The notes under the pieces: generated by a model
The model's input: only the letters and a program-made list of their open reading frames with translations
The model's database searches: none
What the model was told of the DNA's origin: nothing
Made by a program: the position numbers and the translations under genes
DNA from: Octopus vulgaris
Lineage: Eukaryota
DNA: 64,000 bases
Direction: 5' to 3'
Assembly (NCBI GenBank): GCA_951406725.2
Contig: OX597818.1
Coordinates: forward strand, 54,312,001 to 54,376,000
Part shown: one piece after another, positions 2,985 to 64,000 of the stretch
How the letters are laid out: each line of letters starts with the position of its first letter
Numbering within the stretch: the first letter of the stretch is position 1

Positions 2985-3734
2985 TACATCCGAGATGACC
3001 TCACGCCCCAGGTCCTGTTGTCATATTCAAACTCAGTGTGTGAAACTCAAATTGTACACATAAGACAACTGAATATCGTCATATGCACTACATATCGCCC
3101 ACCAGATGCCCCAAATCACTCAGGCATGTTTGAAGACTGCCTAACAAAAATAGGAGAAGTCCTCACCAACCTTGAACAACACATCAGTATATTCTTCATG
3201 GCTACACAAAGAAAATCGACTCAATGTAACATATCAGCTACTGGGAAAGACTGAAGGTATTAAACCTCTTCTCCCTAGAGCGGAGACGGGAGAGATATGC
3301 GGTGATATACATCTGGAAAATCCTGGAGGGTCTTGTCCCAAACTTTGGCATTCAAAGTTACCCCAACCGCAGAACGGGGCGCCACTGCATGGTGCCAAGG
3401 ATTCCAACATCACCATCAAAATACAGGTCCAGATACTGCAACAGCTTGGGTTTCAGAGGACCACAGCTCTTTAACATCCTCCCTAAATGCCTGAGAGACT
3501 TACATGGTGTGGATGTGGGTTTCTTTAAAACTAAACTGGATCTCTTCTTGTCGGGAGTCCCAGATGAACCTACCTCACGACAGGAGACACAGATGTGGGC
3601 AGCAGCATCGAACTCCCTTGTTGATCAAGTGCCACGTGTCAGAGGTGGATTCACAAATTAGTGTAGCTCATTCAGCGGTGGTGCCCCAGCATGGCCGCGG
3701 CCTTCGGGCTAAAACGTTTTTAAGGATTTAAGGA

Positions 3735-3735
<1 letters not shown>
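2985..3735 (+). mobile_element. CR1/L2-like LINE remnant, internally deleted
   Basis: An APE-like fragment (ICTTYRPP) is joined almost directly to a C-terminal region (YIWKILEGLVPNFG...RGPQLFNILP...FKTKLDLFLSGVPDEP). Homologous to 25275-26190. Ends in the short repeat tttaaggatttaaggat. Confidence 0.75.
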
Positions 3736-3776
<41 letters not shown>

Positions 3777-3835
3777 TAATCCAAACAAGAAAGCACAAAA
3801 AAAATATATGTATATTCATATATGTATATATTTCT

Positions 3836-4922
3836 TTGATTAAAACCATTTCTAACATGGAGGTATCCAAAGAGTATTTAAGGCACATAATGTTTTATGA
3901 GTACAAAAAAGAAAACTCTGCATCTGATGTGACTCGAAACATGCACTCAGTTTATGTGAAAGAATGCTTGAATGAAAGAACTTGCAGAAGATGGTTTGCA
4001 AAATTCAGAAGTGGAGATTTCAGCCTTGAAGATGATGATCGAGCAGGAGGTCCAGTTGAGTTTGATGATAAGCTCCTTGAGGCATTACTTGAAGAAAATC
4101 CTGCATTATCAGTTGAAGAATTGGCAATAAAGCTTAGTTCAAACCATACAACTGTTCATCATCTTCAACAACTTGGAAAGGTTCCTAAACTTGGAAAATT
4201 GTTGCCTCATGAATTGTCCGAAAGCAACCGCAAATCCCGAATTGACATCTGCTCTTCTCTCCATTCTTGCGAACTCATTTCATCCTTTTTGGATAGACTT
4301 GTGACTGGTGACGAAAAAGGGATCTTCTATCGAAATGTTAAACGTCGTAAACAGTGGCTTGGTAAAAGGGAAAAAGCTCAACCACAACCGAGAAAGGAAC
4401 TTCATGGGAAAAAGTTTCTTCTCTCTACCTGGTGGGAATTGTTTGCACCTAATGCAACAATCAATGCTCAAGTCAACTGTCCGCAATTAGAGCGTTTGAA
4501 CCAAATTTTGAAGAAAAAAAGAACCGCTTTAATGAATCGAAAAGGAGTGATGTTTCATAAGGACAATGTGCGACCCCACACTGCAAAGATCACATCACAG
4601 AAGATCGAAGAGCTTGATTGAGAAAAAAATCCTCATCCACCTTATTATCCCTTCCGATTAGCATTTGTTTCGTAGTTTACAGAATCATTTGAGGACATAA
4701 CTTTCGCAAGCCAGGAGGAGGTCGAAACTGACACTTCAGAGCTCTTCGCGTTAAAACCCAAAGAGTTTTACATTGATGGGATTAAAAAGCTTGTAAATAG
4801 ATGGAAGGAAGTCATAGATAATCAGGGAAAGTACATTGATGATTAAATTTCAATTCAATATAACATTTCATCACTTGTTTTCTTTATTCAAAATTCGAAC
4901 AGAACTTATGGGACGACCTGAT
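3836..4922 (+). mobile_element. Mariner transposon, degenerate transposase with right TIR
   Basis: Motifs RRWFAKFRSGDFSLED, LLPHEL (WVPHEL-like), LVTGDEK, KDNVRPH and a damaged HPPY..PSD. The right end is ...cttatgggacgacctgata. Confidence 0.92.
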
Positions 4923-5908: not shown

Positions 5909-6000
5909 CACACAAACAACATATGTAGGAAATTCTATCTGTGGGTGTGTTTGTTTGTGGAGTTGTTAGGTAACATATATCCTATATCCTTTTATCGATT

Positions 6001-6955
6001 TTGAATGAAAGAACTTGCAGAAGATGGTTTGCAAAATTCAGAAGTGGAGATTTCAGCCTTGAAGATGATGATCGAGCAGGAGGTTCAGTTGAGTTTGATG
6101 ATAAGCTCCTTGAGGCATTACTTGAAGAAAATCCTGCATTATCAGTTGAAGAATTGGCAATAAAGCTTAGTTCAAACCATACAACTGTTCATCATCTTCA
6201 ACAACTTGGAAAGGTTCCTAAACTTGGAAAATTGTTGCCTCATGAATTGTCCGAAAGCAACCGCAGATCCCGAATTGACATCTGCTCTTCTCTCCATGCT
6301 CGCGAACTCATTTCATCCTTTTTGGATAGACTTGTGACTGGTGACGAAATAGGGATCTTCTATCGAAATGTTAAACGTCGTAAACAGTGGCTTGGTAAAA
6401 GGGAAAAAGCTCAACCACAACCGAGAAAGGAACTTCATGGGAAAAAGTTTCTTCTCTCTATCTGGTGGGAATTGTTTGCACCTAATGCAACAATCAATGC
6501 TCAAGTCAACTGTCAGCAATTAGAGCGTTTGAACCAAATTTTGAAGAAAAAAAGAACCGCTTTAATGAATCGAAAAGGAGTGATGTTTCATCAGGACAAT
6601 GTGCGACCCCACACTGCAAAAATCACATCACAGAAGATCGAAGAGCTTGATTGGGAAAAAAATCCTCATCCACCTTATTATCCCTTCCGATTAGCATTTG
6701 TTTCGTAGTTTACAGAATCATTTGAGGACATAACTTTCGCAAGCCAGGAGGAGGTCGAAACTGACACTTCAGAGCTCTTCGCTTTAAAACCCAAAGAGTT
6801 TTATATTGATGGGATTAAAAAGCTTGTAAATAGATGGAAGGAAGTCATAGATAATCAGGGAAAGTACATTGATGATTAAATTTCAATTCAATATAACATT
6901 TCATCACTTGTTTTCTTTGTTCAAAATTCGAACAGAACTTATGGGACGACCTGAT
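6001..6955 (+). mobile_element. Second, 5'-truncated copy of the same mariner (part of a tandem duplication)
   Basis: Near-identical to 3968-4922; ORF 6001-6708. Confidence 0.92.
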
Positions 6956-8064: not shown

Positions 8065-9217
8065 CATATATGTACATGCATATATATATGCATATATATG
8101 TATATGTATATATATATACGTATATCTATATATATAAAGTTGATAATGTGTGTCTGTCTGTCTGTCTTTCTGCCTGTTCGTCTGCCTGTATGTGTGGAAA
8201 CTTAAAACTCGAGAACTACAACACCATTTTCATTCAAATTTTGCACGTTTTACTTAGGGCCAATGTAGTGTCATGGACCAAAACGTTCTCAAATTCTTGC
8301 GTAATGCGAGCCCAGAGCAATCTTCTATCTCTTCCACAGTTACAGTATTACGTGTTAAATGTGAGAGAATACATCTCTGTATTGTTCATATACACACACT
8401 CACAGACACACACACACACACACGCAAACAACATATGTAGGAAATTCTATCTGTGGGTGTGTTTGTTTGTGGAGTTGTTAGGTAACATATATCCTATATC
8501 ATTTTATCGATTTTATGAATCATGTGAGCAGCACTCATGTCTGGAAACCTCATGACTTACGTAGATTGTTGAAAAAATCGATAATAGGTTTCCTGGAAGG
8601 GATCCCTATATCTACTACATATAATTAAAATATATTATTTAAACCCCCAAGGGAAATAACCTAGCACCTGCATTTACAATTGTCATTTTTTAGCAAAGCG
8701 ATGAATATGTGATTCTCACGATCAGTGGACCTAATTCTGCATTTCACTACCTACAGTTTTGAACTGCTAAACCTTACTATTGCAGTTTCTTGATTTGAAT
8801 CTTAAACCTTAAAGACTTCATTCATACATTTATATACATACATACTCTTTTGCGCGTATATATACTACATTTATATATTAGCTTTAATAAATTAGCCTTG
8901 ATAAAGTTAACCTTTAAAATGCCACGGCGAGTAAGAGTACGAGTGGGTACTTGTACTTCACGAGCTGCTCTAATGCGACAACGATGATCTCAAGTAAGTC
9001 TCTGATTCATTGTTTGATATTTACTAAATCAAACAATTATTCTTCATCTATTCTACTTCAATATCTAAACAGTTAACAGCCGAAATCTGCGATGAGGGAT
9101 CAGTATCTGACTGAAGAATGAAGGCTTGAATGACCCGTTTGTCTTTTTGTTCGTCTCTTCGTGTATTTCACGTTATTTATTTATATAAAGGTCTATTATA
9201 TATATATATATATATAT

Positions 9218-12200
9218 TTTCAACAATTGAGGGTAAAATTAATTAATTATTAATCAATTTCACCAAGTGTTCAGTATGCAAAGGGACCATTTAAGGCGAA
9301 TTCAAATTATTACATTATATAAAAGGGCTTAGTAAAATAAATTACTTCGCCGCATACTGAACTCATTAGAAATAGCAGCTAAAAAACTTTTTTAAAGCTA
9401 TTTCTAATACTTAAAGAAAATCTCTCTCATATATAGCGTTTGCCTAATTCAACTCACAAAAGTTTGGGGTAAGGACATTAAAAAATCAAATGCTAAGGTT
9501 ATTTGAGTACGTACGTTTCAAGATTAGTCAAAACAACACTTCTATCTTCAGCTCAGAAATTCCTTGGTTTGGATTTGGAAACACTGAAAGTAAGAACATA
9601 CCCTTTCGAAGATTCGCTCGTTACTAACAGTGCCAACAAACCCAAAATAAGCAAGTGAAGAATTCCTGTCCTCCCCTTTCCACCAGCGTGGGTTAAAATC
9701 ATCAAACGCTATGCTTATTTCGGTAAAATCCGAAGCATTAATTAGAGGGAGATTAATTATAATTTCAACAATTGAGGGTAAAATTAATTAATTATTAATC
9801 AATTTCACCAAGTGTTCAGTATGCAAAGGGACCATTTAAGGCGAATTCAAATTATTACATTATATAAAAGGGCTTAGTAAAATAAATTACTTCGCCGCAT
9901 ACTGAACTCATTAGAAATAGCAGCTAAAAAAACTTTTTTAAAGCTATTTCTAATACTTAAAGAAAATCTCTCTCATATATAGCGTTTGCCTAATTCAACT
10001 CACAAAAGTTTGGGGGTAAGGACATTAAAAAATCAAATGCTAAGGTTATTTGAGTACGTACGTTTCAAGATTAGTCAAAACAACACTTCTATCTTCAGCT
10101 CAGAAATTCCTTGGTTTGGATTTGGAAACACTGAAAGTAAGAACATACCCTTTCGAAGATTCGCTCGTTACTAACAGTGCCAACAAACCCAAAATAAGCA
10201 AGTGAAGAATTCCTGTCCTCCCCTTTCCACCAGCGTGGGTTAAAATCATCAAACGCTATGCTTATTTCGGTAAAATCCGAAGCATTAATTAGAGGGAGAT
10301 TAATTATAATTTCAACAATTGAGGGTAAAATTAATTAATTATTAATCAATTTCACCAAGTGTTCAGTATGCAAAGGGACCATTTAAGGCGAATTCAAATT
10401 ATTACATTATATAAAAGGGCTTAGTAAAATAAATTACTTCGCCGCATACTGAACTCATTAGAAATAGCAGCTAAAAAACTTTTTTAAAGCTATTTCTAAT
10501 ACTTAAAGAAAATCTCTCTCATATATAGCGTTTGCCTAATTCAACTCACAAAAGTTTGGGGGTAAGGACATTAAAAAATCAAATGCTAAGGTTATTTGAG
10601 TACGTACGTTTCAAGATTAGTCAAAACAACACTTCTATCTTCAGCTCAGAAATTCCTTGGTTTGGATTTGGAAACACTGAAAGTAAGAACATACCCTTTC
10701 GAAGATTCGCTCGTTACTAACAGTGCCAACAAACCCAAAATAAGCAAGTGAAGAATTTCTGTCCTCCCCTTTCCACCAGCGTGGGTTAAAATCATCAAAC
10801 GCTATGCTTATTTCGGTAAAATCCGAAGCATTAATTAGAGGGAGATTAATTATAATTTCAACAATTGAGGGTAAAATTAATTAATTATTAATCAATTTCA
10901 CCAAGTGTTCAGTATGCAAAGGGACCATTTAAGGCGAATTCAAATTATTACATTATATAAAAGGGCTTAGTAAAATAAATTACTTCGCCGCATACTGAAC
11001 TCATTCTGAGCGAACGCATTCTTACTTTCAGTGTTTCCAAATCCAAACCAAGGAAGAGCTGAAGATAGTGTTGTTTTGACTAATCTTGAAACGTACGTAC
11101 TCAAATAACCTTAGCATTTGATTTTTTAATGTCCTTACCCCCAAACTTTTGTGAGTTGAATTAGGCAAACGCTATATATGAGAGAGATTTTCTTTAAGTA
11201 TTAGAAATAGCTTTAAAAAAGTTTTTTAGCTGCTATTTCTAATGAGTTCAGTATGCGGCGAAGTAATTTATTTTACTAAGCCCTTTTATATAATGTAATA
11301 ATTTGAATTCGCCTTAAATGGTCCCTTTGCATACTGAACACTTGGTGAAATTGATTAATAATTAATTAATTTTACCCTCAATTGTTGAAATTATAATTAA
11401 TCTCCCTCTAATTAATGCTTCGGATTTTACCGAAATAAGCATAGCGTTTGATGATTTTAACCCACGCTGGTGGAAAGGGGAGGACAGAATTCTTCACTTG
11501 CTTATTTTGGGTTTGTTGGCACTGTTAGTAACGAGCGAATCTTCGAAAGGGTATGTTCTTACTTTCAGTGTTTCCAAATCCAAACCAAGGAATTTCTGAG
11601 CTGAAGATAGAAGTGTTGTTTTGACTAATCTTGAAACGTACGTACTCAAATAACCTTAGCATTTGATTTTTTAATGTCCTTACCCCAAACTTTTGTGAGT
11701 TGAATTAGGCAAACGCTATATATGAGAGAGATTTTCTTTAAGTATTAGAAATAGCTTTAAAAAAGTTTTTTAGCTGCTATTTCTAATGAGTTCAGTATGC
11801 GGCGAAGTAATTTATTTTACTAAGCCCTTTTATATAATGTAATAATTTGAATTCGCCTTAAATGGTCCCTTTGCATACTGAACACTTGGTGAAATTGATT
11901 AATAATTAATTAATTTTACCCTCAATTGTTGAAATTATAATTAATCTCCCTCTAATTAATGCTTCGGATTTTACCGAAATAAGCATAGCGTTTGATGATT
12001 TTAACCCACGCTGGTGGAAAGGGGAGGACAGAAATTCTTCACTTGCTTATTTTGGGTTTGTTGGCACTGTTAGTAACGAGCGAATCTTCGAAAGGGTATG
12101 TTCTTACTTTCAGTGTTTCCAAATCCAAACCAAGGAATTTCTGAGCTGAAGATAGAAGTGTTGTTTTGACTAATCTTGAAACGTACGTACTCAAATAACC

Positions 12201-12930
12201 TTAGCATTTGATTTTTTAATGTCCTTACCCCCAAACTTTTGTGAGTTGAATTAGGCAAACGCTATATATGAGAGAGATTTTCTTTAAGTATTAGAAATAG
12301 CTTTAAAAAAGTTTTTTAGCTGCTATTTCTAATGAGTTCAGTATGCGGCGAAGTAATTTATTTTACTAAGCCCTTTTATATAATGTAATAATTTGAATTC
12401 GCCTTAAATGGTCCCTTTGCATACTGAACACTTGGTGAAATTGATTAATAATTAATTAATTTTACCCTCAATTGTTGAAATTATAATTAATCTCCCTCTA
12501 ATTAATGCTTCGGATTTTACCGAAATAAGCATAGCGTTTGATGATTTTAACCCACGCTGGTGGAAAGGGGAGGACAGGAATTCTTCACTTGCTTATTTTG
12601 GGTTTGTTGGCACTGTTAGTAACGAGCGAATCTTCGAAAGGGTATGTTCTTACTTTCAGTGTTTCCAAATCCAAACCAAGGAATTTCTGAGCTGAAGATA
12701 GAAGTGTTGTTTTGACTAATCTTGAAACGTACGTACTCAAATAACCTTAGCATTTGATTTTTTAATGTCCTTACCCCCAAACTTTTGTGAGTTGAATTAG
12801 GCAAACGCTATATATGAGAGAGATTTTCTTTAAGTATTAGAAATAGCTTTAAAAAAGTTTTTTAGCTGCTATTTCTAATGAGTTCAGTATGCGGCGAAGT
12901 AATTTATTTTACTAAGCCCTTTTATATAAT
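9218..12930. repeat. ~546-bp tandem repeat array in two head-to-head arms (retrozyme-like), (TA)n at both ends
   Basis: Unit starts at 9221, 9766, 10313 and 10859. Orientation switches at ~11006, and inverted units run to 12930. Confidence 0.95.
11597..11648 (+). ncRNA. Type I hammerhead ribozyme motif (one per 546-bp unit)
   Basis: tgag-CTGAAGA-[t-aga..agt..act..tct-t]-GAAA-cgtacg-TA-ctca. Copies on + at 11056-11102, 12142-12193 and 12688-12739; on - at 9504-9555, 10051-10102 and 10597-10648. Confidence 0.8.
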
Positions 12931-13147
12931 ATATATATATATATATATTGCTGTAATTAATTTAGACATTACATTAATAGACATTTTTCAACATCTCCAA
13001 ATAACTAAATGCTGGCAAAGAATGCCGGCTTTTCAATTAATATTGATTACACTTTGAATGCCCATAAATCCAATAATTCTGCATTTTTCCAGTAAAACAT
13101 TTTCAATGGCTGTAGATAAATTTTTGATTCCAGAACCTATTTAATAA

Positions 13148-22424: not shown

Positions 22425-23294
22425 TCACTTGTAAAAGTATAATTCTTTTGTCAACATGCTTGCTATGCAAGGAACTTGTTTCATTTCATTAATCTCTGAA
22501 TGTCTAGTCTTAGACTCATATTCATAGGCAACCCTACGATTTACTGAAATCATTAATTGTTGCAGTTCAAGTCGGTCTCCGTCTTTTTCCAAAATGTGAG
22601 CCAACGATTGAATAAACCACGATCCATTAGTGGAATTTCTCCAGGCGTAAAATCCAGGGACAGTGGAATAAGCTAGAAGAACGTCTGCCCAAAGTGGTAC
22701 TTTGTGAGATGTGACATTTTGATATTTCTCTCTTACAAAAGCATCGGCATCGTGCATAACTGCACCTCTGTCCAGTTTTGTTCCCCGACAAGCTTGTACG
22801 AAGAATAGTTTTGGCTTACCTATTAAGCCTGGGCATCTATCAGGAAGCAACATCTGCACTAACTCGTTAAGATTTACTTTTCTATCAGTGCCATAAATCT
22901 GGTTATCATCTTCACCGTGTGTCAATATAACACAAAGGAAGCAGTTATACTTCGCATGCTCCATCGTGGATATATCCGTAAAGATTCGCGTCATCTCTTT
23001 CACTGATAAATTCCTGCGGTTGATCACCTTAAAATGCAATGACTTCAATATCATTTTAATTGCTGATGCGTCTTCATCGGATCCTTGTCGTTCAGGCATT
23101 CCTGTCGATTCATCAAAGTTCACGTTATTTATTATTAAAGCCAGATTCTCTTTTTTGTGATCCATGTCATATCTGGTATTTACAGATTCGCTACATTCCT
23201 CAACAGACACCATTTCAACATCTTTAGGTTGTGAATTGGGATCCTTCTCATTAAAAAAAATACCTTCAACACGTTGTGCATCTGTGTAGTCCAT
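22425..23294 (-). CDS. Caspase-3/7-like executioner caspase, copy 1 (289 aa, single coding exon)
   Basis: ALIINN, RQGS, LTHG (catalytic His), GKPKLFFVQACRG (catalytic Cys), linker VMHD|A, YAWRN..GSWF, KQVPCIASMLTK; short prodomain. Confidence 0.95.
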   Translation of the reverse strand: MDYTDAQRVEGIFFNEKDPNSQPKDVEMVSVEECSESVNTRYDMDHKKENLALIINNVNFDESTGMPERQGSDEDASAIKMILKSLHFKVINRRNLSVKEMTRIFTDISTMEHAKYNCFLCVILTHGEDDNQIYGTDRKVNLNELVQMLLPDRCPGLIGKPKLFFVQACRGTKLDRGAVMHDADAFVREKYQNVTSHKVPLWADVLLAYSTVPGFYAWRNSTNGSWFIQSLAHILEKDGDRLELQQLMISVNRRVAYEYESKTRHSEINEMKQVPCIASMLTKELYFYK

Positions 23295-23959
23295 GATTGA
23301 TCTGAATGTGTTTGAAGGTGTGGAAATATATCAGGGGAACAACAAACGGTGGATTGTTCTGAAAATTGGACTTAAAATTTCACTGCAGTTAAGGAACGGA
23401 AAAAGACGATAAATTAGCGCTGTTTTTGTCGTTGTTCAGCACAGAAATAGCAGTCAAATTGTATTCTTTATAAATATCAAGATGGTGTGAATAACACAAG
23501 CGAATATTCAATAGACAGTAGTAAATATAGGTTAGTACATTACAAAGTAAAATATCCACATCTGTTAAACTTACACCTTAAACGTTGATAAAATGTCCAG
23601 ACATAACTTGATAATAAAATAGACAATCCACCGAAAGAGAATTTCACTGAATTTTTAAGTGATACAACAGTCGTAACCCAACACAAGACTACTTCTTCGT
23701 TTTTATTTGTTTGCGCTTTCTGAATGTATATCTAAGATATGTCATGCCTTAGTAATTACTGGTTAGCAACGAACCAATGATAAAGGTTTCTATATTTAGG
23801 TCATTGAGTGGGATCAGCAAGTTTTCTATGCAATATAATGCACCCAATAATACATATTTTTCTGAGAAAGCGAAAGTTTTTTTTTTTATTGGAAGTTTTA
23901 TAGCCCGATGCGTATAGGTGTCGTAACTATACATCTACACATGTACACACACACAAACG

Positions 23960-31553: not shown

Positions 31554-31735
31554 CGTGTGTATCGTGTCAGGTTCGAGATGGGAAGGATGGCTTCCCTTTG
31601 TAAATACTGATAGGGCACAAATAGTATGTCAATAGCCAGCTGGAGGAGATGTCCTCCTGGGGCTACAAGCTACAGTAGCATCCACCCTTAAGGGTTAGCC
31701 ACATTTAAGTGGCAAATATACGCAAATATACTTCA

Positions 31736-31801: not shown

Positions 31802-32432
31802 GTGTGTGTGTATATATATATTTATATATTTAACAATTAAGGATAACTACTTAATAAGGAATCTTAACAAGAAATTATCAGATAGTTAGCGTGAAAAACC
31901 TCATAAGAGAAAAATTCGAAAATAATTTATGATTTATAAATATCTCCATGTGTTTCGACGGAGAGAGCAGTTGCTTGTTCGACTTCGCCAGGTAGTGTTG
32001 GTCGTTTATTGATGATGTGTTCAGAATCAGTTCTACCGATGAGCATAGGACGCATTTTATGCGGTAAGTGCGAAATCACAGGTGATATAGGACTAAATTC
32101 ATTTTTTAAATGTCTTGCTTTGAAAAACTGCATTGGGTATGATTAGTGAAATTTTGGTAGTAATGACTTATGCCCCTCTTAGTGTGAGGCATTTATGTGT
32201 AATAATGCCCTCTATATAATATATATTTATATATATATGTATATATATTTATATATATATGTATATATATATGTATATATATATATTTGCATACCTCGAA
32301 CCCACAAGTGTAAACAAGACTGACAGAGAAAGGCAGAAACAAGGAAAATGCCACTTATATTTGAACACTATACAAATATTCCTTTAAAAAAACTTTTCTT
32401 TTAATTTTCTAAATTTAATTATTTAATTGTTA

Positions 32433-32470
32433 CAGTTGAAAAGGTCTCAAAATGACTGAAACCGGTACTG
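32433..32470 (+). ncRNA. Minimal hammerhead motif with U3-A8 core
   Basis: cag-TTGAAAA-ggtc-tcaaaat-gact-GAAA-ccgg-TA-ctg, about 50 bp before a long (TA)n tract. Confidence 0.6.
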
Positions 32471-32518
32471 AAGTGTTCTTTATAAAACTATTTTAGCATT
32501 TTCTATCTTGACTTGTTT

Positions 32519-38686: not shown

Positions 38687-39553
38687 TTACTTGTAAAAGT
38701 GTAGTTCTTTTGTTAACATGCTTACTATGCAAGGAACTTGTTTCATTTCATTAATCTCTGAATGTCTAGTCTTAGACTCATATTCATAGGCAACCATGCG
38801 ATTTACCGAAAGCATTAATTGTTGCAGTTCAAGTCGGTCTCCGTCTTTTTCCAAAATGTGAGCCAACGACTGAATAAACCACGTTCCGTTAGTAGAATTT
38901 TCATAGGAGTAAAATCCAGGGACAGTGGAATAAGCCAGAAGAACGTCTGCCCAAAGTGGTATTTTCTGAGATGTAATATTATGATATTTGACTCTAACAT
39001 CACCAGCATCGTGCATAACTGCACCACTGTCCAGTTTTGTTCCCCGACAGGCTTGTATGAAGAATAGTTTTGGCTTACCTATTAAACCTGGGCATGAATC
39101 AGGAAGCAACATCTCCACTAAATCGTCAAGATTTATTAAGTCATCAGTGCCATATATCTGGTTATCGTCTTCACCGTGAGACAATATAACACAAACGAAG
39201 CAATTATGGTTTCCATGGTCCAATGCGGATATATCATAAAAGATTTGCTTCATGCTTTTCACTGATAAATTCTTGCGTTCAATCACCTTAAAATGCAATG
39301 ACTCCAATGTGTGTTTAATTGCTGATGCATCTCTCTCTGATCCTTGTCGTTTAGACATTTTAGTCGATTCCTCAAACTCTACGTTATTTATTATTAAAGC
39401 CAGATTGACTCTATTACGATCCATGTTATATCTGGTATTTACAAATTCGCTACATGCACCAGCAAACTCCATTTCCTCGTCCTGAAACGGGAAATCGGGA
39501 TCTTTCTCCTTAAAAAATACACCTTCTAGAGTTTTTGTATATGTGTAGTCCAT
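38687..39553 (-). CDS. Caspase-3/7-like, copy 2 (288 aa), atypical substrate pocket
   Basis: SHG and QACRG are intact, but SWR is replaced by SYE and the N-terminal DxxD|A site is lost. Confidence 0.93.
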   Translation of the reverse strand: MDYTYTKTLEGVFFKEKDPDFPFQDEEMEFAGACSEFVNTRYNMDRNRVNLALIINNVEFEESTKMSKRQGSERDASAIKHTLESLHFKVIERKNLSVKSMKQIFYDISALDHGNHNCFVCVILSHGEDDNQIYGTDDLINLDDLVEMLLPDSCPGLIGKPKLFFIQACRGTKLDSGAVMHDAGDVRVKYHNITSQKIPLWADVLLAYSTVPGFYSYENSTNGTWFIQSLAHILEKDGDRLELQQLMLSVNRMVAYEYESKTRHSEINEMKQVPCIVSMLTKELHFYK

Positions 39554-41602
39554 CGTTGATTGGAATATGTATGAATGTTCGAAAATGAATCAGAGAAACA
39601 ATAAAGCGTGGATTGTTATGAAAACTGACGTAAAAATTTCACAGCAGTTAAGGAACAGAAGAAGACGATAATTTAGCGCCGTTTTCGTCGTTGTTCAGCA
39701 CTTAAATTGAATTCTTAATAAATTTCCAAATGGTGTGAATAACGGAAGCGATTATTCAATAGATATTAATAAATGTAGGTTAATAATCAATAAAGTAAAG
39801 TATCCATTTTTGTTAAACGTACTCCTGGGTTTAATCAATATATAACTGCTAATATACCTTAATAAAAAGTCCAGACATAGCTTGATTACAAAATAGATAC
39901 TCCACTGAAAGACAATTTCCCCGAATATGTACGTGATGCTACAATGGTCAGTCAACACAAGACTGCTTCTGCGTCTAATCAATATGTAGAATATGCTATG
40001 TGTCTTTCGATAAATATATACATTTTTGTTGCGAGTAACACTGGCGTTTGAAACTGTTAAATTTCTCTCTGTTTACAAGACATATACTTGCTAAATCCTT
40101 CAATCCGAGCTGCAGTCGTTCTTTTAAATTTGTTTTTGTGTCCGTTAGTGTGAGATCGAGATTCCGTTTGCTTGTGGACTTTGTTTTGTGTGTCTGTGTT
40201 GGGTGTGAGTGTGTGTGTGTGTGTGTGTTTTATGCATATGTATGTGTATAATTTTACGTCTCTACTTTTGTTTGTTCAGTTTGTCTTTTGTAGTTGAAAG
40301 TTCAGTTCATTTTCTTATCTTATCTTTTACATGTTGTAAAATGCAAATGAACCAGTAAACTCTGGAGGAGGGGAAACTAGAACAACAAACATAGTAGGAG
40401 TGAGTTACGGTCAGAGGTGTTAGATGCGAGGAAACTAATGAAATGTTTCAATCTGAAGTCGTTGATATTTTAATCAAAATGAAACTAAATTTTATCGTTA
40501 ATTACATTTATCTTATCAGATTAACACACACATACATGCACATACATACATACATACATACATACATACATACACACATACATACATACATACATACATA
40601 CACACATACATACATACATACATACATACATACACACATACATACATACATACATACACACATACATACATACATACATACATACATACATACATACATA
40701 CATACATACATACACACATACATACAAACATACATACATACATACATACATTTACACACATACATACACACATACATACAGATACATACACACATACATA
40801 CATGCATACATACATACATACATACATACATACATACATACATACATACATACATACATACATACATACATACATACATACATACATACATACATAATAT
40901 ATATATATATATATATATATACATACATACACACACACGCACACAAATATATGCGCAGGAGTAGCTGTATGCCTTGCTTACCAACCACATGGTTCCGGGT
41001 TCAGTCCCAATGCGTGGCACCTTGGGCAAGTGTCTTCTACTATAGCCTCGGGCCGACCAAAGCCTTGTGAGTGGATTTGGTAGACGGAAACTGAAAGAAG
41101 CCCGTCGTATTTATGTATATATATACACTTGCCCAAGGTGCCACGCAGTGGGACTGAACCCGGAACCATGTGGTTGGTAAACAAGCTACTTACCACACAG
41201 CCACTCCTGCGCCGTGGAGGCACGTGGCTTAGTGGATAGGGTGTCAGCATCATGATCGTAAGATTGTGGTTTCGATTCCTGGACCGGGCGACGCGTTACT
41301 GGCAAAAATGAGTAACGCTGCAATGGACTGGCATCCCGTCCAGCTGGGGAACACATACGCCATTGAAACCGGGAAAACCGGGTTTATGAGCCTGGCTAGG
41401 CTTTAAAAGGGCTCATTTATTTTATTTCATATATATAGGAGTGGCTGTGTGGTAAGTAGCTTGCTAACCAACCACATGGTTCCGGGTTCAGTCCCACTGC
41501 GTGGCATCTTGGGCAAGTGTCTTCTGCTATAGCCCCGGGCCGACCAATGCCTTATGAGTGGATTTGGTAGACGGAAACTGAAAGAAGCCTGTCGTATATA
41601 TG

Positions 41603-44038: not shown

Positions 44039-44450
44039 AAAGTAAGCACATAAATGCGTAACAAGGTAGAAAAAAAATTGTACTCGAATACCAGAATTAG
44101 AGTAACATGCTTTATTAGAAAGCAGCCTTATGGTATTTGCAAAGGGAGGCCATCCCTTTCTCGTAAGCCTAAGTGATACGCACGGACTGCAGTTTCGAGG
44201 TTGTTGCCTCTTGTCAACGGGCGGTAATCACCGGATGAACTCCTGGGGCTAAAAGCTACAGTAACACCCCCCTTTGTGGTTAGCCATATTGAGATGGCTA
44301 TTATACTTTACATTGTCGAGGGGCTACTGTTTACATCTCGTTCAGCGATTTAATAATGCTTGCAGACAGTTTTTCGAAATCAGTGACGGAAGTTACTAGA
44401 AAAACACTTATATATTTGCATACAGGCTTTCCCTTTCATCGTGATCCGGT

Positions 44451-46086
44451 GGTTTTTTTGTTTGTGTCGGATATTTTGGATTAAGTTTATTGTGTATCGC
44501 GGTTGTGAGTTTGAATTCGTTGGTGGAAGCTGTTACGGCGTGGTGAATTGTGGGTGTTTTTTTCGAATATGCAAACCCAAACTTATGTAGGAGCGGCAGG
44601 CAAGGCTCTGGCTGCGACCGAGCTGCAGTTGGAGGAAGTGGTCGTCGAGAAGGGGAGCCTGAAGGAATACTTCAACAGTTTCAAGAAGGAGGGTGACTGC
44701 CTGAGAGTCACACTACCAGAAGACGAAGTGAAAGAGGCAGAGAGGCGTATTGTGACATATAGAACGTGGAGCGTGGCTTCGAAGAAAATAGAAGTGGCAG
44801 AGGTGAAGGAAATCGAGAGGTGTTTGCAGGAGATTGAAGAAAAAGCTACCTTCTATAATAGAGGTAGAAAGTACGCGACGGTGGTAGTTCATTTTGAGAA
44901 AGAAGCTGAAGCGAAGAAGAACGCTACGAAGATATTGAAAAATGAAAAATGGGTATTACTACCTAGCTATTGTGGAAGACGAGCGGTGAGAATAAGGATC
45001 AGCAAAATTTCACCAGAATTGAAAATGGAGAGAATTATAGCAGCAACAATATTTAACTGCAAGGAGAATGTCGAGATATTGAAGATAGAAAGGTCGAAGG
45101 AAGTAAAGAGGTGGGGTTATGCAGTACAGGCTTTGGTACACATAACCATGCCAGACATGTATAACATCCCTGAAGAGTTGGTGTTCCCCGACGAGACACG
45201 ACTCATAGTCATGGTAGAGGGGAGACCCCCAGTGTGCTACACATGCAAGATTAGAGGCCACATGAAGGATGTGTGTCCGCAAAAAAAGTACAAGAGGAGA
45301 TGATAACATTGGAGGCTCTGACAGAGGAATTGCAAATGGCGGATGTAGAAGAAGAAAGTGTGGATACAGATAATGTGGAAAGTGGTGACAAGTTGGTGAA
45401 GGAGGAAGAAAAGGAAAGAACAGAAGGAAAAGAAGATAGAAAGAGAACGCGGGTGGAATCACCACCTAAAGTACAACAAAAAAAAAAAGAAAAAAACCAA
45501 AAAGAAGACTACCGACGAGATAGAGGTTCGAACGCACGAAGAGGAAGATACTGAAACAAAAGCGAGTGAAGTTTCAAGGAGAAAGAATGGGAAAGTAAAG
45601 TGGAAGATTGGCTGAGAGTATGTAGGGAAGGAAGTAGACCAAAAGGAAGAAATTTGAAAGCGGTAATGTTGTACAAGAAGGACAAGGAAATTGAGAAGTT
45701 GGCAAACATAGAAAAATTTAACCAGAGTGAAATTAAATCCGAAAATGTTTGATGACCAGGTGAAGGCGGCGATTGTGGAAAGAGAGACAGGGATGAAACT
45801 GAGCAAAGTGTATACAGGTATATGCATAATGCAATACGTTCGGTACGAGAGTTTGCCAGGGATTATAGAGCAGGAGGAAGTACTTGAATACATAACAGAT
45901 GAACGCCCGGAATAAAACAATTTAAATGAAACTGTGAGCTTGGGGACCCGTAAGACATTTCATTAATTCATTATAAATAATTCATTGTCATACCATACTT
46001 TTCGATTTTTTTATTATATGTACCCCATGTCCTGTATTGTAATGTCTCCTCTGAATTTGGGCCATTGTGCCTATAATAAAGAGTTA
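44451..46086 (+). mobile_element. ORF1-only (HAL1/Tx1-ORF1-like) retroelement with 13-bp TSD
   Basis: TSD atcgtgatccggt at 44438-44450 and 46087-46099; AATAAA near the 3' end; no RT visible. Confidence 0.7.
44548..45303 (+). CDS. Gag/ORF1-like protein with CCHC zinc knuckle (frameshifted; probably continues to ~45915)
   Basis: VEGRPPVCYTCKIRGHMKDVCP (CX2CX4HX4C), preceded by an RRM-like segment and followed by a charged low-complexity tail. Confidence 0.7.
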   Translation: MWVFFSNMQTQTYVGAAGKALAATELQLEEVVVEKGSLKEYFNSFKKEGDCLRVTLPEDEVKEAERRIVTYRTWSVASKKIEVAEVKEIERCLQEIEEKATFYNRGRKYATVVVHFEKEAEAKKNATKILKNEKWVLLPSYCGRRAVRIRISKISPELKMERIIAATIFNCKENVEILKIERSKEVKRWGYAVQALVHITMPDMYNIPEELVFPDETRLIVMVEGRPPVCYTCKIRGHMKDVCPQKKYKRR

Positions 46087-46105
46087 ATCGTGATCCGGTT
46101 ATTAC

Positions 46106-46150
46106 CTCCCGTTGACAAGAGGCAACAACCTCGAAACTGCAGTCCGTGCG
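46106..46150 (+). ncRNA. Type I hammerhead, U3-A8 core
   Basis: ctcccg-TTGACAA-gagg-caacaa-cctc-GAAA-ctgcag-TC-cgtgcg. Confidence 0.75.
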
Positions 46151-46355
46151 TATCACTTAGGCTTACGAGAAAGGGATGGCCTCCCTTCGCAAATACCATA
46201 AGGACACAGATAATGTGCCTAAAGCCAGCTGGAGACGATGATCTCCTGGGGCTAAAAGCTACAGTAACACCCCCCCCCCTTTGTGGTTAGCCATATTGAG
46301 ATGGCTATTATACTTTACATTGTCGAGCGGTTACTGTTTACATCTCGTTCAGAGA

Positions 46356-46420
<65 letters not shown>

Positions 46421-46484
46421 AATTTAAGTATATATATATATATATATATATATTTAAATTTAAGTATATATATATATATATATA

Positions 46485-47186
46485 TAAGAAATATTGAATT
46501 TCTAAATCTCTCGTAGAGACATGTACGGTGGTAGGGCGATAGAATGGTTGTATACTGTCAATCTCACAAGAACGTGACAGTAGGGGGTACACCACCGTTG
46601 TATAGCCCTAGGAGGCATCGAACGCCTCCTGACAGTTTCGACACATTTTTTTCCCTGTGTCCTTATATACATATACGAAGGGGAGACAAACACCCCCAAC
46701 CGCCGGAACTGCATCTAGGGACACCGTGTTTCAGGATCATTGTCCTTCATCGGCCTAGAGTAGCAGACACCGGTCGGCTGGTGATATTTGCCTGGACTTC
46801 GCATCTGTATATATGTAAACCATTCTATCGCCCCACCACCGTACATGTCTCTACGAGAGATTTAGAAATTCAATATTTCTTATTTTGATAATCAGTGAAT
46901 AAACTTCACTGAGTTTACATATATACAGATGCGAAGTCAAGGCAAATATCACCAGCCGACCGGTGTCTGCTACTCTAGGCCGATGAAGGACAATGATCCT
47001 GAAACACGGTGTCCCTAGATGCAGTTCCGGCGGTTGGGGGTGTTTGTCTCCCCTTCGTATATGTATATAAGGACACAGGGAAAAAATGTGTCGAAGCTGT
47101 CAGGAGGCGTTCGATGCCTCCTAGGGCTATACAACGGTGGTGTACCCCCTATTGTCACGTTCTTGTTAGATTGACAGTATACAACC

Positions 47187-47188
<2 letters not shown>
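46485..47188. repeat. Head-to-head pair of a ~366-bp hammerhead-containing unit, (TA)n at both ends
   Basis: 46485-46820 is a circularly permuted reverse complement of 46821-47188. Confidence 0.9.
46974..47019 (+). ncRNA. Type I hammerhead, CCGAUGA (U4C) core
   Basis: tctagg-CCGATGA-agga-caatga-tcct-GAAA-cac-g-gtg-TC-cctaga; identical copy on - at 46714-46759. Confidence 0.82.
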
Positions 47189-47265
<77 letters not shown>

Positions 47266-47271
47266 GGACTA

Positions 47272-48000
47272 GTTATGGAGCAGTTACTGTCTATATCTCA
47301 TTTAGAGAATTATTATTGCTGTCGAACAGATTTTCGAAATCAGCAAATGTATTTTGCTTGAAAATCTATATATAAATATCCTGCAGAGTGAGTTGTTCGT
47401 CGAGGAGGCGGGTGCCTACCACACGTTGATAATAGGCAATACACCTTGAAACCTAGGTCCGTGTGTGGTTTCCGCTTCATCGGGGAATTATCTCCTCCCT
47501 TGCAGGATAGAGGACGCCGTGATGGTGTCAAGCCTATCTGGCGACGTTGATGTTCGCCTGGGGCTAAATGCAACAGTAACACCCCCACCACCCTGCCCTG
47601 TCCCTAGCCATATTCAGATGGCTTTAGTCCCTTATGTTATGGAGCAGTTACTGTCTATATCTCATTTAGAGAATTATTATTGCTGTCGAACAGATTTTCG
47701 AAATCAGCAAATGTATTTTGCTTGAAAATCTATATATAAATATCCTGCAGAGTGAGTTGTTCGTCGAGGAGGCGGGTGCCTACCACACGTTGATAATAGG
47801 CAATACACCTTGAAACCTAGGTCCGTGTGTGGTTTCCGCTTCATCGGGGAATTATCTCCCTTTGCAGGATAGAGGACGCCGTGATGGTGTCAAGCCTATC
47901 TGGCGACGTTGATGTTCGCCTGGGGCTAAATGCAACAGTAACACCCCCACCACCCTGCCCTGTCCCTAGCCATATTCAGATGGCTTTAGTCCCTTATGTT
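47272..48000 (+). repeat. Tandem dimer of a 364-bp retrozyme-like unit
   Basis: Unit starts at 47272 and 47636. The 3' end runs into (TA)n, and a short inverted copy of that end sits at 47260-47271. Confidence 0.92.
47420..47465 (+). ncRNA. Type I hammerhead, U3-A8 core
   Basis: cacacg-TTGATAA-t-agg-caataca-cct-t-GAAA-cctagg-TC-cgtgtg; second copy at 47784-47829. Confidence 0.8.
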
Positions 48001-48019
48001 ATATATATATATATATATA

Positions 48020-57838: not shown

Positions 57839-58838
57839 GGTAAATAATTTTCCTGTGGTTTTTCATGTAACCAACAATTATTTACCGGTAAATTTCGGTA
57901 TGTAAATACGACAAAATAATTGTCAAGACCTTTGTAAGATTCAGTATATAGTAAAGAAAAATAAGTTGGCTAGCAGCAAGCTGTTTCGCCTCATACCGAA
58001 GGAATTAGAAATGGCAGTCAAAGACCGTTTTTTCAATTTCTATAAGTGGAGATTCCAAAAACGAAGGCCCTTGCGGCTCACATACACAAAACCGGAGTGG
58101 CAAATATACGAATTCAGTCACTTACCGTTAATAGCGAACACGGTGTTTCTGGATCACAAACATATAAAAAAAGGGGAGTTTGAATTCCGTCATCAGCGCT
58201 ATATTCGTTAGCTTTATCAAATGCCACCAGCCCTCACTTCTGACCCAGCGACATCAGATAGTGGGGGGAAGTGCGTAGATGTTAAAACCAAGTAATGACT
58301 GGGAACGTAAATTTTCCCTCCAAAATTCTGCCATGCGCGCCTTCTGGGTAATCGTAATGGAATGAGGAATCCACATGGTAATACAATAAAAATGGTAAAT
58401 AATTTTCCTGTGGTTTTTCATGTAACCAACAATTATTTACCGGTAAATTTCGGTATGTAAATACGACAAAATAATTGTCAAGACCTTTGTAAGGTTCAGT
58501 ATATAGTAAAGAAAAATAAGTTGGCTAGCAGCAAGCTGTTTCGCCTCATACCGAAGGAATTAGAAATGGCAGTCAAAGACCGTTTTTTCAATTTCTATAA
58601 GTGGAGATTCCAAAAACGAAGGCCCTTGCGGCTCACATACACAAAACCGGAGTGGCAAATATACGAATTCAGTCACTTACCGTTAATAGCGAACACGGTG
58701 TTTCTAGATCACAAACATATAAAAAAAGGGGAGTTTGAATTCCGTCATCAGCGCTATATTCGTTAGCTTTATCAAATGCCACCAGCCCTCACTTCTGACC
58801 CAGCGACATCAGATAGTGGGGGGAAGTGCGTAGATGTT
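57833..58838 (-). mobile_element. 1.8 tandem copies of a 555-bp retrozyme-like unit
   Basis: Unit starts at 57833 and 58388; abuts (TA)n; absent from the paralogous site at 63264-63333. Confidence 0.92.
58131..58202 (-). ncRNA. Type I hammerhead, canonical core
   Basis: atagcg-CTGATGA-c-gga..caaac...gtttg..tcc-a-GAAA-cac-c-gtg-TT-cgctat; second copy at 58686-58757. Confidence 0.85.
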
Positions 58839-58873: not shown

Positions 58874-59739
58874 TTACGTGTAAAAGTGTAGTTCTTTTGT
58901 TAACATGCTCACAATGCAAGGAACCTGTTTCATTCCATTCCAAGACGAATCGCTGGCATTAGACTCATATTCATAGGCAACGCTACTATTTACTGAAAGC
59001 ATTAATTGTTGCAGTTCAAGTTTGTCTCCGTCTCTTTCCAAAATGTGGGCTAACGACTGAATAAACCACGATCCATTAGTGGAACTTCTCCAGGAGTAAA
59101 ATCCAGGGACAGTGGAATAAGCCAGAAGAAAGTCGGCCCAAACTGGTACTTTGTGTGATGTGACATTTTGATATTTGTCTCTAACAGCTTGAGCATCATG
59201 CATAATTACGCCACTGTCCAGTTTTGTTCCCCGACAGGCTTGTATGAAGAATAGTTTTGGCTTACCTATTAAGCTCGGACATCTATCAGGAAGCAACATC
59301 TCTACTAAAGTATCCAGATTTACTTTGCCATCCGTGCCATAAATCTGGTTATCGTCTTCACCGTGAGTTAATATAACACAAACGAAGCAATTATACTTCG
59401 TATAGTCCATCCGGATATATCCGTAAAGATATGCGTCATCGCTTTCACTGATAAATTCTTGCGTTCGATCACCTTAAAATGCAATGACTTCAAAGCCTTT
59501 TTAATTGCTGATGCATCTCTGTCGGATCCTTCTCGATTAGAATTTTCTATCGATTTGTCAAACTTTTCGTTATTTATTATTAAAGCCAGGTTCTCTTTGT
59601 TACGATCCATGTCATATCTGGCATTTACAGATTCGCTATTTTTTTCAACAGACTCCATTTCAACATCTTGAGGTTGTGAATCGGGATCTCTCTCATTAAA
59701 AAATATACCTTCAACACGTTGTGCATCTACGTAGTCCAT
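58874..59739 (-). pseudogene. Caspase-3/7-like, copy 3, 1-nt frameshift at ~59412
   Basis: ORFs 59368-59739 and 58874-59410 together give a full caspase. One base is missing relative to copies 1, 2 and 4 (a sequencing error is possible). Confidence 0.8.
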
Positions 59740-60408
59740 GGTTGAGCGGAATATCTATAAAGCAGCCGAAATGTAGCAGTACAACTTTAAGCCGTGAAAT
59801 ATTGTTGCAAAAATTGAGGAACGGAAAATAGCGATATATTACCTCGGTTTTTCCCTTTGTTCAGCTCAGAAATAGCGGTTAAATTGATCCTGATGTTGCG
59901 GATAACACATGCGATTATTCAAAAAATATTAATTAATATAAGATAAGAATATGTAGGATAAAAGATGTAGTTTGATGAACGTACTCCTGGGTTTAATCAA
60001 TATTTAAATGCTGAGATCAGTTGATAATTAAGCAAATGTCCACATAGAACTTGATACTAAAAAGACAGTCCGCTGAGTGTCAATTTCACTGACGATGGGC
60101 GTGATTCTACAATAGTCACTCAACGCAAGACTACTTCTGCGTCTTATTTATTTTCTATGCTATATATATGATATTATCTGTGTCATATGTTATGCTTCAA
60201 TAATCATGGTTACGTATGAACCAATGAGAGATGACAAGGAAGTTTTCTATGCAATTTCCAAGAAAGAAATAACACAAATATTTTCTGAGAAAACGATATA
60301 AAATCAGTTCTAGATTTTTGTTCAGTCATATAACGAAACTGAACACACACACACACACTCACACACATATTTATCTCTTTATATAGATATGTACATATAT
60401 AACATACA

Positions 60409-60601: not shown

Positions 60602-62141
<1,540 letters not shown>

Positions 62142-63261: not shown

Positions 63262-63328
<67 letters not shown>

Positions 63329-63367
63329 TTGAGGGGAGATTGGGATAACGTATATTAAACGAAGATT

Positions 63368-64000
63368 TTACGTGTAAAAGTGTAGTTCTTTTGTTAACAT
63401 GCTCACAATGCAAGGAACCTGTTTCATTCCATTCCAAGACGAATCGCTGGCATTAGACTCATATTCATAGGCAACGCTACTATTTACTGAAAGCATTAAT
63501 TGTTGCAGTTCAAGTTTGTCTCCGTCTCTTTCCAAAATGTGGGCTAACGACTGAATAAACCACGATCCATTAGTGGAACTTCTCCAGGAGTAAAATCCAG
63601 GGACAGTGGAATAAGCCAGAAGAAAGTCGGCCCAAACTGGTACTTTGTGTGATGTGACATTTTGATATTTGTCTCTAACAGCTTGAGCATCATGCATAAT
63701 TACGCCACTGTCCAGTTTTGTTCCCCGACAGGCTTGTATGAAGAATAGTTTTGGCTTACCTATTAAGCTCGGACATCTATCAGGAAGCAACATCTCTACT
63801 AAAGTATCCAGACTTACTTTGCCATCAGTGCCATAAATCTGGTTATCGTCTTCACCGTGAGTTAATATAACACAAACGAAGCAATTATGCTTCGCATGGT
63901 TATCCTTGGATATATCCGTGAAGATTTGCGTCATCTGTTTCACTGACAAATTCTTGCGGACGATCACCTTAAAATGCAATGACTTCAAAGCCTTTTTAAT
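63368..64000 (-). CDS. Caspase-3/7-like, copy 4 (5' part outside the window)
   Basis: Open frame with LTHG, QACRG, IMHD|A and YSWRS..GSWF. Confidence 0.9.
   Translation of the reverse strand: MKKALKSLHFKVIVRKNLSVKQMTQIFTDISKDNHAKHNCFVCVILTHGEDDNQIYGTDGKVSLDTLVEMLLPDRCPSLIGKPKLFFIQACRGTKLDSGVIMHDAQAVRDKYQNVTSHKVPVWADFLLAYSTVPGFYSWRSSTNGSWFIQSLAHILERDGDKLELQQLMLSVNSSVAYEYESNASDSSWNGMKQVPCIVSMLTKELHFYT

Follow-up and report, generated by a model that had tools for sequence, protein, structure and literature searches.

How is the tertiary pair between positions 3 and 8 of a hammerhead ribozyme exchanged from C-G to U-A, and through which intermediate? The question is raised by a 64,000-nucleotide stretch of the Octopus vulgaris genome (the window), in which five hammerhead motifs carry U3-A8 in place of C3-G8. 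These are type I hammerheads, belonging to retrozymes and to one Penelope-like end repeat. We consider it probable that they cut their own transcripts as dimers, and that the core went from C-G to U-A repeatedly by way of a U·G wobble, which itself spread to hundreds of copies. Two of the retrozyme copies flank a derivative of a long interspersed element (LINE), whose choice of site is taken up further below.

A scan of the window with positions 3 and 8 left unconstrained recovered all five U3-A8 motifs as type I hammerheads, with cores TTGACAA at 46112–46118 (+) and 44217–44211 (−), TTGATAA at 47426 and 47790, and TTGAAAA at 32436–32442. The cores and coordinates given for them in an earlier, sequence-only reading of this DNA were thus correct. 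All show the type I order of N3UGANN8A, GAAA and NUH with three stems and stem I open; downstream of each core follow a paired stem II of 3–4 bp, GAAA, a stem III that is short and palindromic, the cleavage triplet (GUC or GUA) and a paired stem I. In family B (defined below), stem II has a U·U at its base. The stem III palindromes have predicted self-duplexes of −8 to −11 kcal/mol and match the dimer arrangement that PMC4209133 reports in metazoan hammerheads. In a relaxed scan, 18 hammerheads were found in the window as against 0–2 in each of 15 block-wise dinucleotide shuffles, and five U3-A8 hits as against none in all 15. Both counts are far above the shuffles and are therefore not due to chance. 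The remaining 13 of the 18 are C3-G8, three of them with U4C.

The earlier expectation that standard searches would miss these motifs holds for Rfam: with the HH9 model over the region 44050–46340, the copy at 46112 reached 24.5 bits where the gathering score is 52, and it is not filed under RF02275; the copy at 44217 was absent from the matches listed. Over the whole window, no hammerhead was among the 150 Rfam matches listed (272 more exist), nearly all of which are microsatellite look-alikes of microRNA families. A descriptor for U3-A8 cores is, however, already in print (PMC4209133).

Four of the five motifs lie in short repeats of two families, A and B, accompanied by a third, C:

44126–44236 (−): inverted partial copy of a family A retrozyme with a U3-A8 hammerhead, core 44217–44211, predicted cut after 44185
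44234–44437 (+): downstream portion of a family A unit, running to the point where the LINE derivative is inserted, with a U2-like upstream motif at 44379
46087–46362 (+): family A retrozyme copy with a U3-A8 hammerhead, core 46112–46118, predicted cut after 46144
46441–46785 (−): family C retrozyme copy, inverted, with a C3-G8 core carrying U4C that starts at 46753
46818–47193 (+): family C retrozyme copy with a C3-G8 core carrying U4C at 46980, predicted cut after 47013
47272–48002 (+): family B retrozyme tandem of a 364-bp unit with two U3-A8 hammerheads, cores at 47426 and 47790, predicted cuts after 47459 and 47823

Tandem units measure 350–355 bp in family A (44217, 46112) and 364 bp in family B (47426, 47790), and 350–368 bp over A, B and C together. 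All three families fit the definition of a retrozyme without long terminal repeats (non-LTR): a short tandem unit, one type I hammerhead each, no open reading frame (ORF) and dispersed copies. A and B share 75% identity over 128 nt (blastn E 3e-18) and 62% globally, and the units C and D are more distant relatives at 53–56% identity, with alignment scores that exceed all 20 shuffles. The families had been called related, which is borne out for A and B but not for the family at 32436, for which blastn found no match to A, B or C. End-to-start joints of units occur in contigs of four runs whose RNA status is only guessed, and a tandem or a circle would give the same joints. No run registered as RNA was among those listed, and this was counted neither for nor against expression. 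A decayed piece resembling a family A unit, at 79% over 137 nt, lies at 31585–31721, and elsewhere in the genome four U3·G8 hammerheads of family A are spaced ~1,380 bp apart, the usual tandem unit being 358 bp.

The states of positions 3 and 8 were counted as exact-flank pattern matches across the 2.8-Gb assembly, and the numbers are of copies rather than independent events. There were 956 matches for the A group, 1,443 for family B and 2,183 for the C/D group, and none throughout with reversed-pattern controls. The A group comprises 256 U-A, 340 U·G, 7 C·A and 353 others, all C-G among the matches listed; family B comprises 103 U-A, 148 U·G, 4 C·A and 1,188 others, which are C3C4-G8 among the matches listed. 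Only 11 U·G and 15 C·A copies were found in the C/D group, where by eye 58 of the 100 matches listed are U-A and 39 C-G. Contigs from runs of two other organisms contain family B with U3·G8, one run also with C3-G8. Among 100 matches listed for family B, position 4 tracks position 3 (C3 with U4C, U3 with U4), and the family C core is also U4C.

The sequence-only reading had the two positions changing together, and took single changes as frequent as the double change to count against it. For U·G they are that frequent: U3·G8 outnumbers U3-A8 in both A and B, which indicates a stepwise swap through a tolerated wobble rather than a strictly compensatory one. For the other single change the expectation stands, C3·A8 being rare (7 of 956 and 4 of 1,443). 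The U·G copies form young amplified subfamilies and the C·A copies are scattered. Within family A, the median nearest-neighbour identity is 0.982 for U·G (n = 21) and 0.973 for U-A (n = 42), a similarity which implies that the U·G copies are as young as the U-A copies; they are also found in homogeneous 358-bp tandems.

It might still be held that only C-G and U-A cores work, and that the U·G copies are dead passengers, cut in trans by their partners or copied uncleaved. Strand exchange is possible for dimeric hammerheads (PMC4209133), both single changes are rare in the C/D group, and in the window's own A subfamily U3-A8 is present in 41 of 41 exact-flank matches, other states appearing only with wider flanks. 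A passenger route should, however, carry C·A as well, and amplification is seen for U·G in two families (340 and 148 copies), in tandems that are homogeneous and young, but never for C·A. We therefore regard such strict compensation as unlikely.

Across 116 distinct hammerheads, a haplotype sample biased by the queries used, positions 3 and 8 are paired in 112 when G-U is included and no pairing filter is applied. Pair 2 of stem II is paired in 114 of the 116 (G-C in 64, A-U in 50) and pair 3 of stem III in 97 of 100, with five pair types. This maintenance of stems II and III through several pair types speaks against neutral drift, according to which the cores no longer matter and their states reflect founder effects together with CpG decay, that is, change of G8 to A after C7. 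Such decay has some appeal in the A group, where the U·G copies are mostly TTGACGA and the U-A copies mostly TTGACAA, one CpG transition apart. CpG decay alone cannot explain the states, however, as many C3-G8 copies of family B share the same CpG and yet only 4 of 1,443 are C·A, and we consider drift most improbable.

Trees were built from ~230 columns with the core positions masked, with 99 of 134 rows retained in one and 77 of 136 in the other, the rows dropped being thinned near-copies and unrelated motifs. The U-A state needs five changes on the tree and a single U-A clade is rejected (approximately unbiased test, p-AU 1e-42), while the three C·A rows are separate tips. In family B the C-G copies contain a U·G branch (100/99), within which the U-A pair of the window is nested (100/92). 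The claim that covariation suggests selection for function is thus upheld as regards selection on the 3-8 pair, since C·A is nearly excluded despite thousands of possible parent copies and U-A arose more than once, but not as regards strict compensation. Judged from these sequences, selection likely keeps positions 3 and 8 paired while tolerating the wobble.

In the life cycle that we infer, a retrozyme unit would be transcribed from a promoter of small nuclear RNA (snRNA) type, and hammerhead cleavage would then free the unit RNA, which would become circular and be returned to the genome by a Penelope-like reverse transcriptase. Because spread needs the RNA to be excised and copied back, a new subfamily could be founded only by a core that has kept its ability to cut. 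C3·A8, unable to pair, would be seen only as decay after insertion; U3·G8, which keeps a pair, would pass the amplification filter and found subfamilies; and a later change of G8 to A, favoured where C7-G8 is a CpG, would restore the Watson–Crick pair.

Several observations weigh against this stepwise account. The trees are midpoint-rooted, B is attached through a long branch and the A group gives no clear direction of change. U·G copies are few in the C/D group, no more numerous than C·A, and the intermediate is unseen there. The counts depend on few founder lineages and on exact-flank patterns, stem I is paired in only 90–96 of the 116 hammerheads under a fixed register, and the minimum-energy fold of the family A monomer is not a hammerhead. 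Nevertheless, the repeats, with their thousands of copies spread over three core states and with stems that hardly differ within family B, amount to a natural experiment on swapping a catalytic tertiary pair without passing through an unpaired state, and they make the dependence of retrozyme spread on ribozyme activity directly testable.

The fifth U3-A8 motif stands apart from the retrozymes:

32428–32475 (+): minimal U3-A8 hammerhead in a solo Penelope-like end repeat, core 32436–32442, predicted cut after 32467

U3-A8 is kept in 15 of the 15 loci of this family that were examined. In two of the 15 an ORF resembling a reverse transcriptase (RT), as read by eye, and a GIY-YIG domain (E 0.0016 in one and 0.00016 in the other, each short of the Pfam cut-off) lie ~800 bp upstream of the repeat; the copy in the window is solo. 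By its sequence the motif reads as the end repeat of a Penelope-like element, unrelated to A and B. A pyrimidine-rich tract ending in AG (32385–32435) adjoins its core and resembles a 3′ splice site; in Penelope of Drosophila virilis the intron end maps to hammerhead stem I (PMC4209133).

The insertion between the two family A copies, which the sequence-only reading had missed, consists of the following:

44438–44450 (+): left copy of a 13-bp target-site duplication (at 44438 and 46087), the start of the 5′ arm of stem I
44451–46086 (+): non-autonomous, ORF1-only LINE derivative with a T-rich 5′ end, its ORF running from 44569 in a frame that ends at 45303 and containing a CCHC knuckle
46087–46099 (+): right copy of the target-site duplication, with the inferred +1 of the retrozyme transcript at 46087

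The element is ~1.6 kb long and its 3′ end reads AATAAAGA at 46075–46082. The CCHC knuckle was detected at a Pfam E of 0.013, under the cut-off, and no homologue of ORF1 was found at E 0.001 among 698 candidates of 133–426 residues. There are at least 150 relatives of the element, many with open frames of 450–480 residues. A contig of another run contains the joined empty site (44451 joined to 46101). An alternative placed the ORF inside a Penelope- or Terminon-like element bounded by two end repeats; it was rejected because the unit is split between the flanks, its upstream part alone on the left and its downstream part alone on the right, with the 13-bp duplication.

Autonomous partners of 5.3 kb encode an ORF1, 31% identical to that of the ORF1-only family, and an ORF2 of 1,140 residues with APE endonuclease, RT and zf-RVT domains, whose best solved relative is human L1 ORF2p (E 4e-66). 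With an ORF1 CCHC knuckle, these ORF2 domains, target-site duplication and 5′ truncation, the partner has the features of an L1/Tx1-type LINE, although no named Tx1 protein was among the homologues listed. The nearest named relative of a retrotransposon protein of this genome belongs to Argonauta hians, with 64% identity across 39% of the query.

The 3′ end of the ORF1-only element has 33 exact matches in the genome, of which 30 loci were taken. A hammerhead, of one of several families, follows the element directly in 21 of these; four have a retrozyme-type duplication and another element copy (by eye) and five have other sequence, the library used to classify the flanks having been built in part from the same loci. 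Altogether 25 of the 30 copies occupy one and the same site within hammerhead repeats, preceded at a distance of ~58 nt by a motif that U2 promoters also have. A pattern combining the 3′ end with a hammerhead core gave 278 matches against 83 for its reversed control. Full-length and 5′-truncated copies use the same site, the truncated ones (461–2,045 bp) ending there with duplications, and 23 of the 33 duplications called are of 16–19 bp, one being likely due to chance. We suggest that a family of L1/Tx1-like LINEs, like the derivatives of it that have ORF1 only, uses target-primed reverse transcription to insert at the putative +1 of retrozyme units, whose promoters these elements may borrow.

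What marks this position? A TCAGT-type motif is located at −56 to −60 in 23 of 23 U2 loci without the LINE, and a LINE 3′ end lies directly before +1 in 2 of 25 U2 loci. A looser form of the motif was found 51–58 nt before the start of the duplication in 21 of 26 non-tandem filled retrozyme sites, a raw count without shuffle control. It is the spacing to the U2-like motif that places +1 at 46087, and going by these sequences the insertion site, which lies at the 5′ edge of stem I, is probably where transcription begins. AT-rich boxes lie 22–30 nt upstream of many insertion sites, but the U2 spacing explains the position better than TATA targeting does. A promoter of U6 type was dropped in favour of the U2 type, as U6 loci that look genuine lack the retrozyme motif, though they do have an octamer and a TATA box. 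The LINE adds a new kind of target, the predicted start sites of ribozyme repeats and of U2 genes.

Seven loci with other or atypical targets gave no Rfam match at the gathering score. One ORF1-only copy lies ~30 nt behind a CCAAT and TATA-like promoter, in a target with neither a hammerhead nor an Rfam match. Elsewhere in the genome, relatives of the element form tandem arrays of ~1.8-kb units, whose A-rich 3′ end is unlike that of the element and whose junctions lack a hammerhead.

A tree of 49 ORF1-only elements, 42 of which could be given a target, shows 10 changes of target family, whereas shuffled targets average 19.0 (none of 200 shuffles as low). This clustering fits a read-through tail that matches the target, bursts dominated by one partner or target family, or some hitchhiking. 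The first of these would have the LINE transcript read through into the retrozyme and be trimmed by the hammerhead ~60–70 nt past the element end, leaving a target-matching tail that could pair with the nicked DNA. That the LINE finds its targets in this way, through a ribozyme-made guide that returns daughters to the repeat family of their parent, while the retrozymes record a repeated walk from C-G through U·G to U-A, strikes us as rather doubtful as a combined scheme. Hitchhiking in its full form, in which the LINE derivative does not target repeats and a small number of old insertions multiplied along with the retrozyme, would account for the clustering and for the element copies within tandem arrays. 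It is very unlikely given that close sister elements lie in different retrozyme families, each with its own duplication, and that truncated copies with duplications end at the one site, a joined empty site exists and a LINE 3′ end is also found directly before +1 of some U2 genes. Insertion at a chosen site remains our preferred reading, and the heritable preference for a target bears on how site-specific retrotransposons switch targets.

Further hammerheads occur in the window outside these families. A 546-bp tandem at 9213–13074 has canonical C3-G8 hammerheads, three per strand around an inversion, and is related to a 562-bp pair at 61114 and 61676 (82% over 401 nt). A 555-bp pair at 58196 and 58751 (−) combines a UU triplet with a long stem II, and at 32036 (+) there is one U4C motif on its own. 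There is also a tandem cluster of related open frames of ~300 residues at 22425–23330 (−), 38687–39589 (−), 58874–59754 (−) and ~63300–64000, with a QACRG motif, as in the active site of caspases, and two similar open frames at 3713–4621 and 5974–6708 (+) resemble, by eye, fragments of a mariner transposase.

Searches of the literature for a wobble at the hammerhead C3-G8 pair, or for G8A or C3U, listed nothing beyond a halophile U3-G8 variant with an insertion (PMC7151607), though figures or supplements of PMC3088659 and PMC4209133 may list U3·G8. By title and the start of the abstract, with Repbase outside the search, no work was found that links Tx1 with retrozymes or describes octopus hammerheads of this kind, and the words 'Octopus' and 'cephalopod' are absent from the main text of PMC7229834.

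The core variant itself is not new, natural U3-A8 hammerheads having been published in 2011 and 2014. Perreault (2011) describes covariation of C3/G8 to U3/A8 in several natural ribozymes and states that such pairs had earlier been shown to be active in vitro (PMC3088659), in accord with the sequence-only reading, which held that the swap can retain activity. The octopus motifs resemble these variants in the U3-A8 covariation, U4C and the U10.1-U11.1 mismatch, all named there; they differ in that the earlier examples are rare, whereas hundreds to thousands of copies per state make the evolutionary path readable here. Cervera and de la Pena (2014) report the same swap in Penelope-like hammerheads of Schistosoma, with ~1,300 hits to a dedicated descriptor (PMC4209133). 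The Cercyon elements described there share with the octopus motifs the core covariation, type I topology, a palindromic or minimal stem III and the place in an end repeat, and the 32436 family fits them directly. Unlike in Cercyon, U3-A8 is found here in tandem retrozymes as well, with several origins, and beside amplified U3·G8 subfamilies, of which the text consulted in PMC4209133 makes no mention.

Families A, B and C are like the metazoan non-LTR retrozymes of mussel and axolotl (PMC7229834; bioRxiv 10.64898/2026.07.22.740005) in their tandem units of 350–365 bp, the one type I hammerhead in each, the lack of an ORF and the presence of Penelope-like elements in the same genome. The mussel repeats, of 350–390 bp, self-cleave and give circular RNA (PMC7229834); those of octopus, known from genomic sequence, differ in their non-canonical cores. 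With satellite 2 of the newt (cited in PMC2220036) they share the combination of a hammerhead tandem repeat with an snRNA-type promoter, which in octopus is suggested by motif spacing only.

The closest counterparts of the LINE are the target-specific members of the Tx1 clade, in which Tx1 inserts in Tx1D, Keno in U2 and Tx1-Mar in Mariner-N4 (PMC4494074). The likeness rests on domain content, namely the CCHC knuckle of ORF1 and the APE endonuclease, RT and zf-RVT of ORF2, together with a fixed site in multicopy sequence and tandem insertions that share a duplication. The octopus LINE is unlike these in its abundant ORF1-only derivatives and in that its target is a position, the putative +1 behind a U2-like motif, within hammerhead repeats of diverse sequence. 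Set beside these systems, what is new here is the wobble path of the core and the inheritance of the target family along the element tree.

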